This document shows positions 7,384 to 27,546 of a stretch of DNA of 64,000 nucleotides, piece after piece. The stretch's first letter is position 1; the number at the start of each line of letters is the position of its first letter. The DNA is from an uncultured Chloroflexia bacterium (GTDB lineage Bacteria > Chloroflexota > Dehalococcoidia > GIF9 > UBA5629): the NCBI GenBank assembly GCA_963705905.1, contig OY970123.1, positions 275,051 through 339,050 of the forward strand, written 5' to 3'. The position numbers were made by a program, and so were the translations under genes. The notes under the pieces are model-generated. The model saw nothing but the letters and a program-made list of their open reading frames with translations. It made no database searches and was not told the DNA's origin.

Positions 7384-8547
7384 TTGATTTATCAACTGCT
7401 GGTCTTAGCGGGACTGGTCATTTTTTTAATTAACCTCCTATTGAACCTTTTGACTCTTAAACGTCCCTCCCAAAAAGCCGGCTTGCCCGCTATCCCTCCG
7501 CTTGTTTCCGTGCTTATTCCTGCTAGAAATGAAGAGAAAAATATTGTCAATTGCCTCACATCGGTTTTGAAACAGGACTATCCCAATTTTGAGGTGCTGG
7601 TTATAGACGATAATTCTACTGATCGGACGTATGAAATAGTAAGTAAGATTGCGGAGGCGGATCCAAGAGTCCGCCTTTATGCCGGTAAGCCGTTGCCTGC
7701 GGACTGGGCCGGTAAGCCGTACGCCTGTTTTCAGATCGCTCAACATGCGAAGGGCAACTGGTTCTTATTTTTGGACGCAGACACGATTTGCGAAAGTCAT
7801 ATGATCAGGGGCACTCTCAAAATTGCCATCAAACACCGGGTAGCTCTTCTTTCGGGGTTCCCAAGGCAAAAGTTGATGGGGCTCACTCAGAAGATCGTGT
7901 TGCCGGTCCTCTTTTATTTTGCTCAGATGGCCTGGTTCCCGCTGTGGTTATTTCATACTTCCAAAAAGCCCATGCCAACCATGATAATAGGGCAATTTAT
8001 CCTGTTTAATAAAGATGACTACTGGCGTATAGGCGGGCACGAAGCCGTGAAGTCGAGGATAATGGAAGATGTCTGGTTTGGTCTGGAGATGAGCGGACAT
8101 GGCGGGCGGACCCTAGCGGTTGATCTGTCGAAAACCCTTACAACAGAGATGTACTCTAACCTGGCGGCAATGACCGAGGGTTGCATGAAATGGTTTTATT
8201 CGGTTGCCGCTCTATCCCCGTTAGCTCTCGTTGGTTTTGTGTTCGCTGCCTATATATTCCTTTTGGCCCCATTCTACTGGGCATACGTTGGTCCGGTAGA
8301 TGCTCTGATGAATTCAGCTCAGTTAACAGAGTTGAGCCTAATCATAGCAGCGCAGGTGCTTGTCATTTTACTCATGAGGGTTATAACGGACCAATATTTC
8401 AGGGGATCATCTATTTCTTTTATTTTTCATCCGCTGGGCGTAGCATTCTTGATTTTTGCTGTAGTTGTTGGGGCGTCCCGACGTGCCCTGGGAGCCGGAG
8501 TGGCCTGGAAAGACAGGGTCTATCAGGGCTTTACACATATTAAATAA
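7384..8547 (+). CDS. GT2 family glycosyltransferase (CrtQ/CruC/HpnB-like membrane type)
   Basis: VSVLIPARNEE, DDNSTD, W.GK..AC, FLDAD, GQF, GGHEAV...EDV and C-terminal WKDR motifs. Confidence 0.85.
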   Translation: MIYQLLVLAGLVIFLINLLLNLLTLKRPSQKAGLPAIPPLVSVLIPARNEEKNIVNCLTSVLKQDYPNFEVLVIDDNSTDRTYEIVSKIAEADPRVRLYAGKPLPADWAGKPYACFQIAQHAKGNWFLFLDADTICESHMIRGTLKIAIKHRVALLSGFPRQKLMGLTQKIVLPVLFYFAQMAWFPLWLFHTSKKPMPTMIIGQFILFNKDDYWRIGGHEAVKSRIMEDVWFGLEMSGHGGRTLAVDLSKTLTTEMYSNLAAMTEGCMKWFYSVAALSPLALVGFVFAAYIFLLAPFYWAYVGPVDALMNSAQLTELSLIIAAQVLVILLMRVITDQYFRGSSISFIFHPLGVAFLIFAVVVGASRRALGAGVAWKDRVYQGFTHIK

Positions 8548-8627
8548 ATTTTTTTATCTGACGCTGTCAAAAGGGCCGGTTTAAAATCTTACTGGTTACT
8601 GTTACCATTGAAAGCTGAGGAGCCGCC

Positions 8628-19266: not shown

Positions 19267-20571
19267 ATGAAAGAAGATGAGTTATTAAGTCAACCGATCG
19301 CTCTGCCCGATGGGATTGACTACGATGAGTACATAATAGGTACTTATACAGTCACATACCCGGCTATCTTCCCCATGCCCAAGCTGGCGCCTCTACTTGC
19401 AGTTGAGCAGAGTACTGGAACATGGGTCGCCGTACCCGGCGAGACACCCGAAGTAAGGCGGAATCATATCGCCAAGGTAATAGGTGTTTATGAGTTGCCT
19501 GACTATGAGTTCTCCGTGCCCGGCGGCTTGCAGGAAAGGAACTGGATGATACAGATCGCCTTCCCTGAAGTCAATATAGGATCCCAGATTCCCATGATGC
19601 TGACTGCCGTTGTGGGCAACATCTCCATGGCGGGACAGATAAAACTGGTAGACATAAGATTTCCTAAGAAATATGTGGATGGCTTTAAGGGTCCAAAGTT
19701 CGGTATCGAAGGCATAAGGAAGCTGCTGGGCGTGAAAAAGAGGCCTTTACTGAACAACATGGTCAAACCCTGCACCGGTTATCCCCTGGAAGTGGGTGCA
19801 GAGTTGTTTAAGCTGGCGGCCCTGGGGGGTTGCGACATAGTTAAAGACGATGAACTGATCGCTGATGCATCTTTCAATTCGGTGAAAGGCCGGGTTAAGC
19901 GCTATATGGAGATAGAGAAGCAAGTCTTTGAGGAGACGGGAGAGCATACGCTTTATACCGTAAATATATCCGACTCGGTGCCCAAAATATTTAAGAACGC
20001 CAAGCGGGCAGTAGAGTTGGGTGTAAACGGCATAATGATAAATTACATTGCTGTGGGGCTGCCTGTTTTGCAGGCACTTGCAGAAGATCCCGAGATCAAT
20101 GTACCGATCCTTGCGCATATGGACGTAGCCGGTGCTCTTTATATGTCACCATTCCATGGTATGAGTTCTCACCTCGTTCTCGGCAAATTGCCCAGACTGG
20201 CCGGTGCAGATATAGTCGTTATACCCGCACCCTATGGCAAAGCTCCTGTCATCACGGAGAAATTCGATGCCATGGCCAGAAATCTCACTTATCCGTTTTA
20301 TAACATCAAACCCACCTGGCCAATGGCATCAGGTGGGATAACCCCTTCAATGGTGCCGAAGGTCATGCAGGAGCTGGGCAACGATATCGTCATCGGTTCC
20401 GGCGGCGGAATCCACGCCCATCCCGGTGGACCCGTAGCCGGCGGCAAGGCTTTCAGACAATCTATCGAGGCGACAATGAAGGGCATATCGCTTGAAGAGT
20501 ATGCCAAGACTCACAAGGAGTTGGCCGCTTCAATCCGGGCATGGACTGACCCCTTTAAGAAAGGCGTATAA
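19267..20571 (+). CDS. RuBisCO-like protein (form IV)
   Basis: EQSTGTW, GPKFGIEG, KPCTG, GGCDIVKDDE (carbamylation motif), SGG and GGGIHAHP. Lacks the form I-III KPKLG Lys and HRA motif. Confidence 0.92.
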   Translation: MKEDELLSQPIALPDGIDYDEYIIGTYTVTYPAIFPMPKLAPLLAVEQSTGTWVAVPGETPEVRRNHIAKVIGVYELPDYEFSVPGGLQERNWMIQIAFPEVNIGSQIPMMLTAVVGNISMAGQIKLVDIRFPKKYVDGFKGPKFGIEGIRKLLGVKKRPLLNNMVKPCTGYPLEVGAELFKLAALGGCDIVKDDELIADASFNSVKGRVKRYMEIEKQVFEETGEHTLYTVNISDSVPKIFKNAKRAVELGVNGIMINYIAVGLPVLQALAEDPEINVPILAHMDVAGALYMSPFHGMSSHLVLGKLPRLAGADIVVIPAPYGKAPVITEKFDAMARNLTYPFYNIKPTWPMASGGITPSMVPKVMQELGNDIVIGSGGGIHAHPGGPVAGGKAFRQSIEATMKGISLEEYAKTHKELAASIRAWTDPFKKGV

Positions 20572-24414: not shown

Positions 24415-24627
24415 CTACGATCTGGCGGGAATTCGATCCTGTAAATATTTCAGGCAAATATCCGGGTAGTTGGTGGCGAGGCCCTGCAGAAACCGTCGCC
24501 CCGGCTTTTTATCACCGGTTAAGACCAGACACAGCATCGATGGGGATATGCCCAACTTGGCTGCCAACTTGGCATTGGTCAGCTTCTCCTGTCGCATTAT
24601 ATTGTAAAGCTCGGACTCCAATTTCAT
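24415..24627 (-). CDS. Small XRE/Cro-like HTH regulator (70 aa)
   Basis: MRQEKLTNAKLAAKLGISPSMLCLVLTGDKKPG HTH_XRE pattern; start re-called to ATG 24627. Confidence 0.8.
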   Translation of the reverse strand: MKLESELYNIMRQEKLTNAKLAAKLGISPSMLCLVLTGDKKPGRRFLQGLATNYPDICLKYLQDRIPARS

Positions 24628-24628
24628 G

Positions 24629-24715
24629 TTTACTATATTAAATAAAAAGTTTACTAAAATCAATATCCAAATGGGTAATTTTGACATGATTTTTAAAAAG
24701 ATTTACCATGGTAAA
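24629..24715. promoter_or_regulatory. Divergent promoter region with three related operator-like sites
   Basis: Perfect palindrome TTTACCATGGTAAA (24702-24715); related TTTACTATATTAAA (24629-24642) and TTTACTAAAATCAA (24650-24663); TTGACA-17-TACCAT on + (24681-24709); TTGATT-17-TAATAT on -. Confidence 0.6.
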
Positions 24716-24746: not shown

Positions 24747-25328
24747 ATGTTAAGAGATTTTGTTAAGGATACGCGGTTCAAAAGGGGCTTGTCTCAAGCA
24801 GAGCTGGCCAAGTTGGCCGACCTGTCGCCTTCTTTTATTTGCCGTATTGAAAAAGGTGATTACAAGTCGGTTACCCTGAGTTCCCTGCAAAAACTCTCAC
24901 GCGCCCTGAAGGTTAGCATAAGCGACCTCAGCAACCTCGTTTTAGATAAGAATCCGAAGGAAGATTTGCTAAAGAAAACGCCATATGAGATAATAAGTGA
25001 GCTTTCGCTTTCTTTACCGGCGATCGTGCCGGTTTATGCGGAAATAAATAGCAGGCAGATAATTGAATACGTTTTCGTTCCACGGGAGTTGGCAGCATAT
25101 GGGGGCAAGGAGATGAAGCTGATAGGGATTAAGGCTGCGGAGGTGGAGTACGGCAATGTGGTTCACAAGGGAGACGTAATAATTTGTGGTAAGGACGTGC
25201 CGGCCTCACCAGGTGACCTTTGCCTGAAGATGGAAGGTGAGGAAATGGTCATTGCTCCCTATAAAAAGAAAGACGACTATTTTGCGGTCATACTCCAGGT
25301 CGTCAGAGTCGTTAAAAAGCTCAACTGA
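24747..25328 (+). CDS. XRE-family cI/LexA-like repressor with a degenerate S24 C-terminal domain
   Basis: RGLSQAELAKLADLSPSFICRIEKG HTH; C-terminal IVPVYAEI...EYVFVP...KGDVIIC...PGDLC resembles the S24 fold. Confidence 0.8.
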   Translation: MLRDFVKDTRFKRGLSQAELAKLADLSPSFICRIEKGDYKSVTLSSLQKLSRALKVSISDLSNLVLDKNPKEDLLKKTPYEIISELSLSLPAIVPVYAEINSRQIIEYVFVPRELAAYGGKEMKLIGIKAAEVEYGNVVHKGDVIICGKDVPASPGDLCLKMEGEEMVIAPYKKKDDYFAVILQVVRVVKKLN

Positions 25329-25395: not shown

Positions 25396-26013
25396 CTAAT
25401 GTAAATCCATTACAGACTCTATTGACGCTGGAAGCTGTCTTTGAATCGTAATACTGGAACCTATCGCAGGTTTCACCTGCACTGTAAAATAGGTATTTAC
25501 TGTCAAATTGTCCGACATTGTGTTTCCGGTACCGAGATCGGTAAGGTCTATGGTTATCTCCTTCTGCTCACCGGTTTCCAGCAAGTTATTACCATTTGTA
25601 TACCCCAGGTCTTGAACGGACCATTTCACATTATTGATATAAGTCTGTGCGGTGGTCAGGCTGATGACACATTTATTCTGTGCGCTGGAGGTGCCATCGC
25701 ACGGAGTCATGTCAATAGGATTCCCGGCAATTGCGTTCTTAACTGTAAAAATGATTTTATCCACCGTTGCATTATCGGCGCTGCAGGCCACCACGGAACC
25801 CGATAGCTCCAGGTTACTCTTAGCCTCATTAAGGCCTGCATAAATGGTCTCCTTTCCCTTTTCAGCGGAAAATAGCCCGGCGCTCAGAATCGCGTAGCTG
25901 AAAACAGCGGCCACAGTAACAAATGCGATCAAAATAATCGCAGTCTCCAGCCCGGTCATACCTCTCTGACTACGGTGCATATTAGCTATGGCACTGATCA
26001 ATTTACTAAACAT
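25396..26013 (-). CDS. Archaellin (archaeal-type flagellin, ArlB/FlaB family)
   Basis: Class III signal QRG|MTGLETAIILIAFVTVAAVFSYAILSAGLFS; NLLETGE; C-terminal QVKPAIGS.ITIQRQLP...VMDLH. Confidence 0.9.
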   Translation of the reverse strand: MFSKLISAIANMHRSQRGMTGLETAIILIAFVTVAAVFSYAILSAGLFSAEKGKETIYAGLNEAKSNLELSGSVVACSADNATVDKIIFTVKNAIAGNPIDMTPCDGTSSAQNKCVISLTTAQTYINNVKWSVQDLGYTNGNNLLETGEQKEITIDLTDLGTGNTMSDNLTVNTYFTVQVKPAIGSSITIQRQLPASIESVMDLH

Positions 26014-26189
26014 ATATTTCACCTTCCGAGGTTTTCTAAATTATAGCTATAGGCTAAGGGCAATACAGTAGCCGAAGGTTTAATATAGGTGAGCCAAACG
26101 TCTCTATTTGACTCGATAAACGAAGAAATATGAAATAGATTGGAGTCGAGTGAGCGAACGGTTAAAAAGTAAAACTGTGCCTGAAAATT

Positions 26190-26266
26190 CAATAACGGTT
26201 GCTTCCTAATCACCGAGCCTCACCGAGAGAAGCTCGATGACGGGTCGATTGAAGCAACCGTTATTG
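26190..26266. repeat. Long stem-loop between the two archaellin genes
   Basis: 16-bp perfect inverted repeat CAATAACGGTTGCTTC (26190-26205) / GAAGCAACCGTTATTG (26251-26266), with internal pairings AATC/GATT and CGAGC/GCTCG. Confidence 0.75.
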
Positions 26267-26279
26267 CCGCAGGGAAAAT

Positions 26280-26903
26280 TTAATGCAGATCCATCACGGC
26301 AACAATAGCCGGAGGTAGCTGCCTCTGAATGGTAAGGCTGGACCCTACTGATGGTTTAACCTGAATGTTAAACTGGTCATTGGATGTCAGGTTTTCAGAC
26401 ATGACCTGCGAATAGCCGAGATCGTTGAGGTTGATGGTGATTTCGAACTGCAGGCCGGGGTCCAACAGGTTACTGGTATTGTCAGTGCCGAGAGCGACTT
26501 TGGACCATTTTACAGTATTGAAGTAGTCATATTTGGTCGTCAGGCTCATGACGGTTTTGTTTTGAGAACTAGTTGTGCCGTCGCACTCGGTCATGTCGAC
26601 AGGGTTGTCCGACATGGTGGCATTCCGCAAAGTGAATTTTATTGTCGTGAGAGATTGGCTAACATTATCTCCCAAACCTATTACAGACCCCGATAGCTCC
26701 ATTGCGCTCTTGGCTTCCGTGATACCGGCATAAATCGTTTCCTTAGCCCTTTCGGAAGAAAACAGGCCTGCGCTGAGGACGGCATAGCCAAAAACCGCGG
26801 CCACAGTTACAAAGGCAATGAGGATAATGGCGGTTTCCAACCCCGTCATGCCCTTTTCCCCCTTGTGCATGTTGGATAGAGTTTCTATAAACTTGTTAAA
26901 CAT
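26280..26903 (-). CDS. Archaellin (archaeal-type flagellin), second paralog
   Basis: EKG|MTGLETAIILIAFVTVAAVFGYAVLSAGLFS; colinear with 25396-26013; start re-called to ATG 26903 after GGAGGG. Confidence 0.9.
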   Translation of the reverse strand: MFNKFIETLSNMHKGEKGMTGLETAIILIAFVTVAAVFGYAVLSAGLFSSERAKETIYAGITEAKSAMELSGSVIGLGDNVSQSLTTIKFTLRNATMSDNPVDMTECDGTTSSQNKTVMSLTTKYDYFNTVKWSKVALGTDNTSNLLDPGLQFEITINLNDLGYSQVMSENLTSNDQFNIQVKPSVGSSLTIQRQLPPAIVAVMDLH

Positions 26904-26976
26904 TTTCCCTCCGTTTGCGTGTCCGGTCCCAAATGAAAATACCATAGCTTGTCCAATCGACTGCCTTCAATTATAT

Positions 26977-27148
26977 CTGTGCACACTCAATAATCAATGA
27001 CCTATCCGTACTGATCGGCCCCGTACTTTAGTCCCTGTGCACACTCTAGAGCGTCTATTTCTACGCATTTCGGCTTAGTGCAAGAGGGTATATATGCGCT
27101 TTTGTGCACATGCATATTAGGTCTCATAACGGATGGCGCTGTGCATCA
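26977..27148. promoter_or_regulatory. Repeated palindromic TGTGCACA boxes
   Basis: TGTGCACA at 26978, 27036 and 27103 (first two within identical CTGTGCACACTC) and variant TGTGCATC at 27140. Confidence 0.6.
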
Positions 27149-27207
27149 TGCATGTTAAATTAAGGCATACGAACAAAAAGGGAAAATCAATAAAGGAGGA
27201 AAAGACA

Positions 27208-27546
27208 ATGGCGGCAATAAAGATTGAAAACAGAAAGGTAAATGGGGTTGAGGAAGAGGCGAGGTTAAACTTCTGGGCAGGCAAGCAGACATGCTGGGGT
27301 ACATGCCATTGTCCCGACATGATAAAAGCCGAGTGCCCCGCTACCAAATACCAGTTCCTGCCCTGCTGGGAGATTGAAGGGACTTACTGCAAATTGGATG
27401 ACAGGGGAGCGACGGGCAGGGATACGAGCATTTGCGAAGTGTGCCAGGTATACAAGAAATATGGGGATGGGAAACCGATAGCGTTGAAGCTGTTCGGCCG
27501 CGGCCTGGACACCGCGCTGAAAGACCTGGAAAAAGTGACGCAGTAA
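27208..27546 (+). CDS. Small Cys-rich 'two-CW'-type putative metal-binding protein
   Basis: TCWGTCHC...ECPA...PCWEIEGTYC...ICEVCQVY (8 Cys, two CW dipeptides); ATG 27208 after AGGAGG. Confidence 0.7.
   Translation: MAAIKIENRKVNGVEEEARLNFWAGKQTCWGTCHCPDMIKAECPATKYQFLPCWEIEGTYCKLDDRGATGRDTSICEVCQVYKKYGDGKPIALKLFGRGLDTALKDLEKVTQ

Follow-up and report, generated by a model that had tools for sequence, protein, structure and literature searches.

Two archaellin genes far from the archaellum motor operon in a Dehalococcoidia bacterium

Introduction

Archaella were shown in bacteria only in 2025, and the published survey, which was centred on the motor locus, reported that 243 of 3,780 Chloroflexota genomes, Dehalococcoidia included, carry archaellum loci (Sivabalasarma et al. 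2025, PMC12488501). Here we describe two archaellin genes, arlB_a and arlB_b, in a 64,000-nucleotide (nt) stretch of contig OY970123.1 (the window) from an uncultured Dehalococcoidia bacterium. Positions below are those of the window unless the genome (G000) or a locus (L) is named. The pair probably supplies alternative or minor archaellin subunits, with transcription of their own, which would be assembled by the single ArlHIJ motor encoded elsewhere in the genome. An earlier note on this DNA, made from the letters alone, had treated the presence of such genes in a bacterium as rare; this was overstated, as the archaellum of the lineage is already catalogued in print.

The same survey describes the arl2 gene order for Chloroflexota and places the prepilin peptidase outside the locus, with a peptidase of the bacterial type in most lineages (PMC12488501). 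For Litorilinea aerophila, it reports a filament structure solved by cryogenic electron microscopy (cryo-EM), swimming, and O-glycosylation of the archaellin (PMC12488501). The genus of the nearest named relatives of our host appears in its published table with one archaeal-type locus, its locus sheet gives one gene per arCOG per locus, and the words 'orphan' and 'paralog' are absent from its main text. In its ArlIJ tree, Methanotecta with arl2-like clusters are sister to the Chloroflexota clade; the legend of its Fig. 6 names Methanomada as closest (PMC12488501).

Archaellin genes apart from the motor are described in haloarchaea. In H. salinarum, the tandem arlA1/A2 lies apart from arlB1-3, and all five proteins are reported in the filament (PMC10117864). 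In H. marismortui, the plasmid-encoded FlaA2 is reported as the main subunit and as an ecoparalogue of FlaB with different stability (PMC6528647). The haloarchaea and the present host share archaellin genes located away from the accessory genes, and in the haloarchaea, according to these reports, such archaellins are built into the archaellum by one motor. However, the haloarchaeal clusters are of the arl1 type and their subunits are N-glycosylated, whereas the present host is a bacterium with an arl2-type machine and with seven detached genes at five places.

The two genes encode archaellins

Both genes lie on the minus strand. arlB_a (25396..26013; stop 25396, ATG 26013) encodes a pre-archaellin of 205 residues with three Cys and two N-x-S/T sequons, and arlB_b (26280..26903; stop 26280, ATG 26903) one of 207 residues with one Cys and five sequons. 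Ribosome-binding sites precede both starts, GGAAGGTGA before ATG 26013 and GGAGGG before ATG 26903. The earlier note had read these two open reading frames (ORFs) as archaellin genes, and the profiles agree: both proteins cover positions 1-162 of the 162 positions of PF01917 (Arch_flagellin) with 91.8 bits, against a cut-off of 29.5 bits (E-values 7.5e-26 for arlB_a and 7.6e-26 for arlB_b). Identity between the two proteins is 62%.

The class III signal peptides that had been noticed are also borne out. The leaders, MFSKLISAIANMHRSQRG in arlB_a and MFNKFIETLSNMHKGEKG in arlB_b, are basic, have 18 residues with Gly at −1 and end in KG and RG; cleavage is predicted before MTGLETAI in both, which gives the mature start MTGLETAIILIAF and the stretch MTGLETAIILIAFVTVAAVF after the Gly. 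In a sequence search of the PDB, Thr20 of the query aligned with residue 2 of the mature 9i5h chain, which places the predicted cleavage after Gly18. The class III leader motif recurs in 63 of the 64 archaellins aligned from relatives. TIGR02537, the archaellin/type IV pilin N-terminal domain with a cut-off of 20 bits, is passed by arlB_a (20.5 bits) and just missed by arlB_b (17.3 bits).

The archaellin N-terminal helix, likewise seen before, aligns with the mature N-terminus of 9i5h, the L. aerophila ArlB of the bacterial archaellum, TALETAIILIAFV against TGLETAIILIAFV. This protein was the best match of arlB_b in the PDB sequence search, with an E-value of 7.7e-26. An AlphaFold model of arlB_b, built from a 64-sequence alignment with a predicted local distance difference test score (pLDDT) of 83, has a helix at residues 21-64 followed by a ten-strand beta-sandwich. 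In a Foldseek search of the PDB with this model, ranks 1-16 were all solved archaellins, with 9i5h_C at the top (E-value 2e-15, 35% identity).

The likeness to L. aerophila thus covers the helix and the helix-plus-beta-sandwich fold (here predicted), and it extends to the machine, of the arl2 type in both, and to a bacterial PilD-type peptidase encoded outside the locus. We note two differences. First, arlB of L. aerophila heads the motor locus, whereas the window genes, two of nine paralogues, are about 750 kb away from the motor. Second, L. aerophila belongs to the Anaerolineae (Caldilineales) and our host to the Dehalococcoidia, and about 65% of the residues differ. FlaB3 of Methanospirillum hungatei (5tfy) shares the helix GLE(A/T)AI(V/I)LIAFV and was hit by sequence at an E-value of 1.3e-14; however, its host is an archaeon and its outer domain is only weakly alike, with 24% identity in the Foldseek alignment.

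Bacterial type IV, Tad and Flp pilins also have a leader cut after Gly (here predicted), a Glu at +5 and a hydrophobic helix, and a PilD-type peptidase is present in the genome. In contrast to these pilins, the globular part of the window proteins is predicted to be the archaellin beta-sandwich. A Pfam scan of both proteins gave no match to the pilin families N_methyl (PF07963) and Flp (PF04964) at E-values up to 1, and a DUF4244 match in the same scan (E-value 0.07-0.14) was under its cut-off. An assignment of the proteins to ordinary type IV or Tad pilins, which the earlier note had named as fatal to its proposal, was not what the profiles gave; they gave archaellin. A bacterial type IV or Flp pilin identity is rejected on the absence of any such pilin family at that level and on fold matches that are archaellins. 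The stator proteins ArlF and ArlG also match PF01917, and they have about 130-170 residues, an uncleaved N-terminal anchor and a place between arlX/CDE and arlH. The window proteins, with 205 and 207 residues, 65-66% identity to the ArlB copies of the operon described below and a location outside it, are not of this kind. Both ORFs are genuine archaellins, not type IV or Tad pilins.

Two finer points of the earlier note fared less well. The shared DMT.CDGT motif is present, as DMTPCDGT and DMTECDGT, but its Cys is not a family feature, as it occurs in four of the nine paralogues and, among 64 archaellins aligned from Dehalococcoidia, in 33. The supposed richness in sequons was not upheld, since the 5 and 2 sites of the mature proteins are no more than expected by chance: composition-preserving shuffles had means of 2.49 and 2.71, and they reached the observed 5 and 2 in 165/2000 and 1578/2000 cases. 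N-glycosylation at sequons is usual in archaeal archaellins and does not define them.

The host and its single motor operon

The host is a bacterium, as had been assumed. Its genome is a closed single contig of 2.46 Mb, and its small-subunit (SSU) rRNA matches the bacterial family RF00177 with 1515 bits, which wins the SSU clan. The relatives found with the archaellin alignment are labelled Dehalococcoidia or Chloroflexota, and the two nearest named ones carry the label of a genus that is placed in the Dehalococcoidia, order GIF9, by a published table. Around the pair, Pfam scans of 57 window ORFs show bacterial housekeeping genes, including PlsY, GlpX, CarAB and RNase III, and GC content is even across the region, at 0.45-0.51. 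The bacterial flagellin family PF00669 has no match in the genome.

The pair had been described as detached from any motor genes. Within the window this is correct: genome-wide searches with PF00437, PF01478 and PF00482, together with the Pfam scans, place neither an archaellum motor gene nor a prepilin peptidase there. It does not hold for the genome, in which a complete arl operon of the arl2 type lies about 750 kb off, at genome 1.043-1.051 Mb. Only one such operon was found, in the order arlB-arlB-X-arlG-arlF-arlH-arlI-arlJ, where X is a protein of 333 residues. ArlI (NF058587, 676 bits against a cut-off of 550) and ArlH/FlaH (NF004723, 268 bits against 194) are clear matches; ArlJ matches at an E-value of 2e-120, yet under its cut-off, and the ArlG and ArlF candidates (L018:12159-12677 and L018:11815-12201) match weakly, with E-values of about 1e-7. 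The ArlI-type ATPase is present in a single copy; PilB and two PilT-like proteins account for the remaining T2SSE matches.

A chemotaxis cluster with cheR, cheB, two MCP genes, cheD, cheC, cheA and cheW lies 6-18 kb from the operon. Two PF01478 peptidases with a bacterial A24 N-terminal domain (PilD-type) were found, one directly after this che cluster and the other among the genes for a type IVa pilus at 362-375 kb. This second cluster is complete, with PilB, PilC, N_methyl pilin, PilN, PilT and PilD, and is located 24-36 kb past the window end. Three STT3-family genes were found as well, and among 14 control genomes the STT3 profile matched none but the four archaea. The searches that the earlier note had proposed, for arlFGHIJ, for a prepilin peptidase and for an oligosaccharyltransferase, were thus all positive, except that no component of the cytoplasmic ring was identified. 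The STT3-family genes (781-849 residues) are at G000 915447-916688 (−), 1134053-1135240 (+) and 1136367-1137584 (+).

In total, nine archaellin genes matching PF01917 are spread over six places in the genome; seven of them, at five places, are detached. An alignment of the nine paralogues has 76 invariant columns, with G18-F38 nearly unbroken, and the outer beta-sandwich has diverged, with 52-66% identity. Synonymous divergence between the paralogues is saturated. A helix that stays invariant despite saturated synonymous sites is expected if all subunits share one filament core, one peptidase and one platform.

Three of the paralogues are long, with 337-344 residues (G000 1418295-1419323 (+), 2119451-2120461 (−) and 2120855-2121886 (−); L027:9295-10323, L028:9451-10461 and L028:10855-11886 by locus), and orthologues occur in at least six related loci. 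After the usual end (...MDLD), a linker rich in Gly follows and then a further domain of some 120 residues, predicted with a pLDDT of about 88. The predicted extra domain superposes on archaellin heads, with Z 13.4 and a root-mean-square deviation of 2.3 over 115 residues for 5tfy_I, Z 12.4 for 5ya6_B and Z 11.0 for FlaF (4p94). It has a weak internal sequence match (E-value 3e-5 over 26 residues) and no covering Pfam family. The modelled domain points to a tandem duplication of the archaellin head.

Two-component regulators and HD-GYP proteins flank the arl operon. The latter are PAS/HD-GYP (HD_5) proteins, putative cyclic di-GMP phosphodiesterases, at L018:3314-5098, L018:18724-19908 and G000 1055945-1057099, and another PAS/HD-GYP protein (L028:12055-13878) lies directly upstream of the long-archaellin gene pair. 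This placement hints at a bacterial second messenger wired to the imported machine. A search for neighbour families common to the archaellin loci, regulators and two-CW proteins among them, yielded only these HD-GYP genes, at the arl operon and the long pair, and weak transglutaminase-like matches, the transglutaminase-like protein of the window having weak partial matches to two ORFs at the 2.12 Mb locus.

Detached archaellins in related genomes

Archaellin matches were found in 13 of 40 relatives, namely in 5/5 genomes of the genus, 13/24 of the family and 0/16 from the order's other families. ArlI was above its cut-off in 9 of these 13 archaellin-positive relatives, and in two more (G005 and G010) a contig end cuts the arl operon. 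Among 77 related archaellin loci, 29 have motor genes nearby, 26 do not and 22 are too short to tell; a locus was counted as lacking the motor if it extended for 3 kb or more on each side without a motor gene, and in one of these the sole hit was to the 333-residue protein. By these counts, archaellin genes of this group are as a rule detached.

The loci L030-L033 hold the pair in synteny, among the same neighbours and in the order GlpX, a transglutaminase-like protein (no match in L030), a Cys-rich two-CW-like protein, arlB_b, arlB_a, an XRE-type regulator, a 90-residue protein, a 160-residue protein and rhodanese; the L032 contig ends before the last two. Identities in these loci are 75-87% for the archaellins and 91-96% for GlpX and the regulator. 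Copy number at the locus varies, with one gene in L080 and three in L048, and in L066 the pair is truncated, with 124/207 and 158/205 residues matched.

A tree was built from 114 rows, comprising the nine archaellins of the genome and 105 of 110 hidden Markov model hits from the 77 loci, after hits shorter than 170 residues were dropped. arlB_a and arlB_b fall in separate clades made up entirely of detached genes, with SH-aLRT supports of 100 and 99, respectively. The two operon archaellins fall in a clade of 18 rows, 17 of which adjoin motor genes. Against four syntenic orthologues, the ratio of nonsynonymous to synonymous divergence (dN/dS) is 0.105-0.141 for arlB_a and 0.18-0.29 for arlB_b, over dS of 0.4-0.9; for the neighbours GlpX and HTH193, the XRE-type regulator, it is 0.018-0.071. 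Judged from these sequence comparisons, the window genes are old duplicates that selection has maintained and not copies in decay.

Regulatory elements around the pair

A promoter-like site of arlB_b lies at 26970..26997 on the minus strand (TTGATT-16 nt-TATAAT, 10/12 consensus matches). Its −10 hexamer is invariant in seven aligned orthologous loci, and its −35 hexamer is the same but for one base in one locus. Just upstream of this site are the conserved blocks ATAGGTCATTG and GGGACTAAAGTAC. The block GGTCATTGA precedes not only arlB_b but also three further detached archaellin genes, at a distance of 82-99 nt in these three.

Directly after the arlB_b stop and before arlB_a, within the 266-nt spacer between the two genes, is a long stem-loop (26180..26273, minus strand) with a minimum free energy of −47.7 kcal/mol and a z of −7.0; none of 200 shuffles folds as well. 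Its sequence and 34 pairs are kept in 5/5 orthologous loci, with one compensatory pair only. As a repeat element it was rejected, being unique in the genome and having no Rfam match at gathering score. It is likely a terminator or mRNA-end element that divides the pair into two transcription units. Given the promoter-like site of arlB_b and this 3' stem-loop, the two genes are probably transcribed separately.

A palindrome, TGTGCACA, occurs in three copies within 126 bp upstream of arlB_b, at 26978, 27036 and 27103 (genome 302028, 302086 and 302153). Genome-wide there are 17 copies, against about 37 expected by base composition. It was considered as a shared operator and rejected, since two of the three copies are not kept in orthologous loci; the first site is roughly kept.

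Neighbouring genes and other observations

Divergent from arlB_b is a gene for a Cys-rich protein (27133-27546, plus strand), the start of which is probably a later ATG near 27208. Its match to the NCBIfam two-CW domain is weak (19.6 bits, cut-off 35), and it is kept beside the pair in six related loci. On the other side, arlB_a adjoins a divergent pair of genes 59 bp apart, one for a 90-residue protein with no family match (24415-24687, minus strand) and one for the 193-residue XRE-type helix-turn-helix protein (24747-25328, plus strand), which has an extra C-terminal part. Both are 89-94% identical and syntenic in the closest relatives, and their layout recalls a CI/Cro-like switch.

Farther off in the window, a gene like that of the RuBisCO large chain (19267-20571, plus strand) directly follows the gene for an FGGY-family sugar kinase and precedes one for a pyridine nucleotide-disulphide oxidoreductase. 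It is 91-97% identical in relatives and is possibly of the form III/IV type.

Some archaellin hits carry labels from outside the Chloroflexota. On L034, a 1.47 Mb contig labelled as an Acidobacteriaceae bacterium, an archaellin 74% identical to arlB_b is located at 8001-8618, less than 2 kb from the contig end. The flanking genes there are 27-48% identical to those of the present genome and GC content is 46-53%; a mislabelled bin, a chimeric end and a transfer are candidate causes. The hits on L040 and L097 are on 3-kb contigs with non-Chloroflexota labels.

Discussion

We consider it likely that arlB_a and arlB_b provide alternative or minor subunits for the one archaellum motor of this bacterium. 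The basis in hand is their family, their predicted fold, their leader, their conservation, purifying selection on them, the presence of the motor and its co-occurrence with archaellins in relatives. We infer the processing, the assembly by the ArlHIJ motor and the separate regulation as follows. The host would swim, or be able to swim, by means of an archaellum. Each gene would have its own transcription, arlB_b from a sigma-70-like promoter and up to the strong 3' stem-loop, and arlB_a after the spacer. The class III leader of 18 residues would be cut after Gly by a bacterial PilD-type peptidase, most likely the copy beside the che cluster, and the mature subunits (MTGLETAIILIAF...) would enter the filament base through the only ArlH-ArlI-ArlJ motor of the genome. 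With the same core helix and a diverged outer domain, the paralogues could pack in one core and vary the surface or mechanics of the filament. The window pair may then be condition-specific 'ecoparalogues' or components of a mixed filament. A subunit locus that feeds a motor encoded elsewhere, one of the two explanations offered in the earlier note, is compatible with all findings, including the operon, the PilD-type peptidase, the STT3 genes and the invariant helix. Nothing favours its other explanation, assembly of the pair by another type IV filament system.

Several observations weigh against the reading that we favour. First, PF04659 (ArlD/E) was not found in the genome, the 333-residue operon protein has no family match, and no ArlC/D/E or ArlX was identified, so that the motor's cytoplasmic ring may be incomplete. 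Second, GGTCATTGA was not seen in the promoter region of the arl operon, and co-regulation of the detached genes with the motor is thus not indicated. Third, no ArlI was found in the archaellin-positive relatives G002, G015 and G017, which are 74-88% complete, and in G009, which has ArlI, an archaellin was not found.

The main rival is that the detached archaellins form a pilus of their own, archaellin-like but non-rotating, which would serve adhesion or some other function at the surface and be assembled by PilB/PilC or by ArlIJ in a second mode. This seems unlikely to us, although the type IVa pilus cluster would supply PilB and PilC, and non-motility pili of the archaellin fold exist, 8fk7 of Pyrobaculum being among the fold hits. 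The upstream block common to four detached genes and missing from the arl operon also speaks for it. The Glu at +5 of the mature N-terminus, as in bacterial type IV pilins, is shared by the operon archaellins and hence is no distinguishing mark. Moreover, the helix is invariant between detached and operon archaellins, which is what co-assembly predicts, the archaellin profile is matched from end to end with no pilin family at E-values up to 1, and detached genes accompany arl operons in relatives.

Still less probable is that the genes are redundant duplicates with no distinct role, drifting to loss. The truncated pair of L066, the one to three copies at the locus among relatives and an evolution faster than that of the neighbours would fit such a drift. 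However, the frames are intact and have ribosome-binding sites, dN/dS is 0.105-0.29 over dS of 0.4-0.9, separate orthologue clades are retained across genomes, and the promoter and the 3' stem-loop are conserved. That archaeal DNA was mis-assembled or mis-binned into a bacterial genome is hardly credible: archaellins are otherwise archaeal and a few related hits lie on short contigs or under other-phylum labels (L034, L040, L097), but the pair sits on a single 2.46 Mb contig of even GC content (0.45-0.51), with bacterial housekeeping genes on both flanks and the same synteny in at least five independently assembled genomes.

Significance

Archaella in Chloroflexota, this lineage included, have been in print since 2025, and haloarchaea offer known examples of detached archaellin loci. 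What is added here is the bacterial setting of the detached archaellins and the extent of their dispersal. As the genome is closed, its archaellin genes can all be counted and each assigned a position. In one Dehalococcoidia family, the majority of these genes stand apart from the motor, in conserved orthologous lineages under purifying selection, and some have a predicted second head domain, which together suggests that the imported machine was elaborated inside bacteria, not merely kept. The main picture is unchanged, and concrete genes are now named for studying the composition of multi-archaellin filaments.

A more far-reaching reading, which we offer tentatively and think possible but not probable, is that a single imported archaeal motor is served by a library of separately promoted subunit genes, with which the surface or mechanics of the filament would be rebuilt on demand. 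The library would consist of the seven detached archaellins, which form five conserved lineages and include the three whose outer head is duplicated. If this is true, such rebuilding could serve the escape from filament-using phages, the response to changing peat or sediment chemistry, or a switch from swimming to adhesion. It would then be the first programmable multi-archaellin system described in Bacteria, and a case of a transferred machine that diversified after its transfer.

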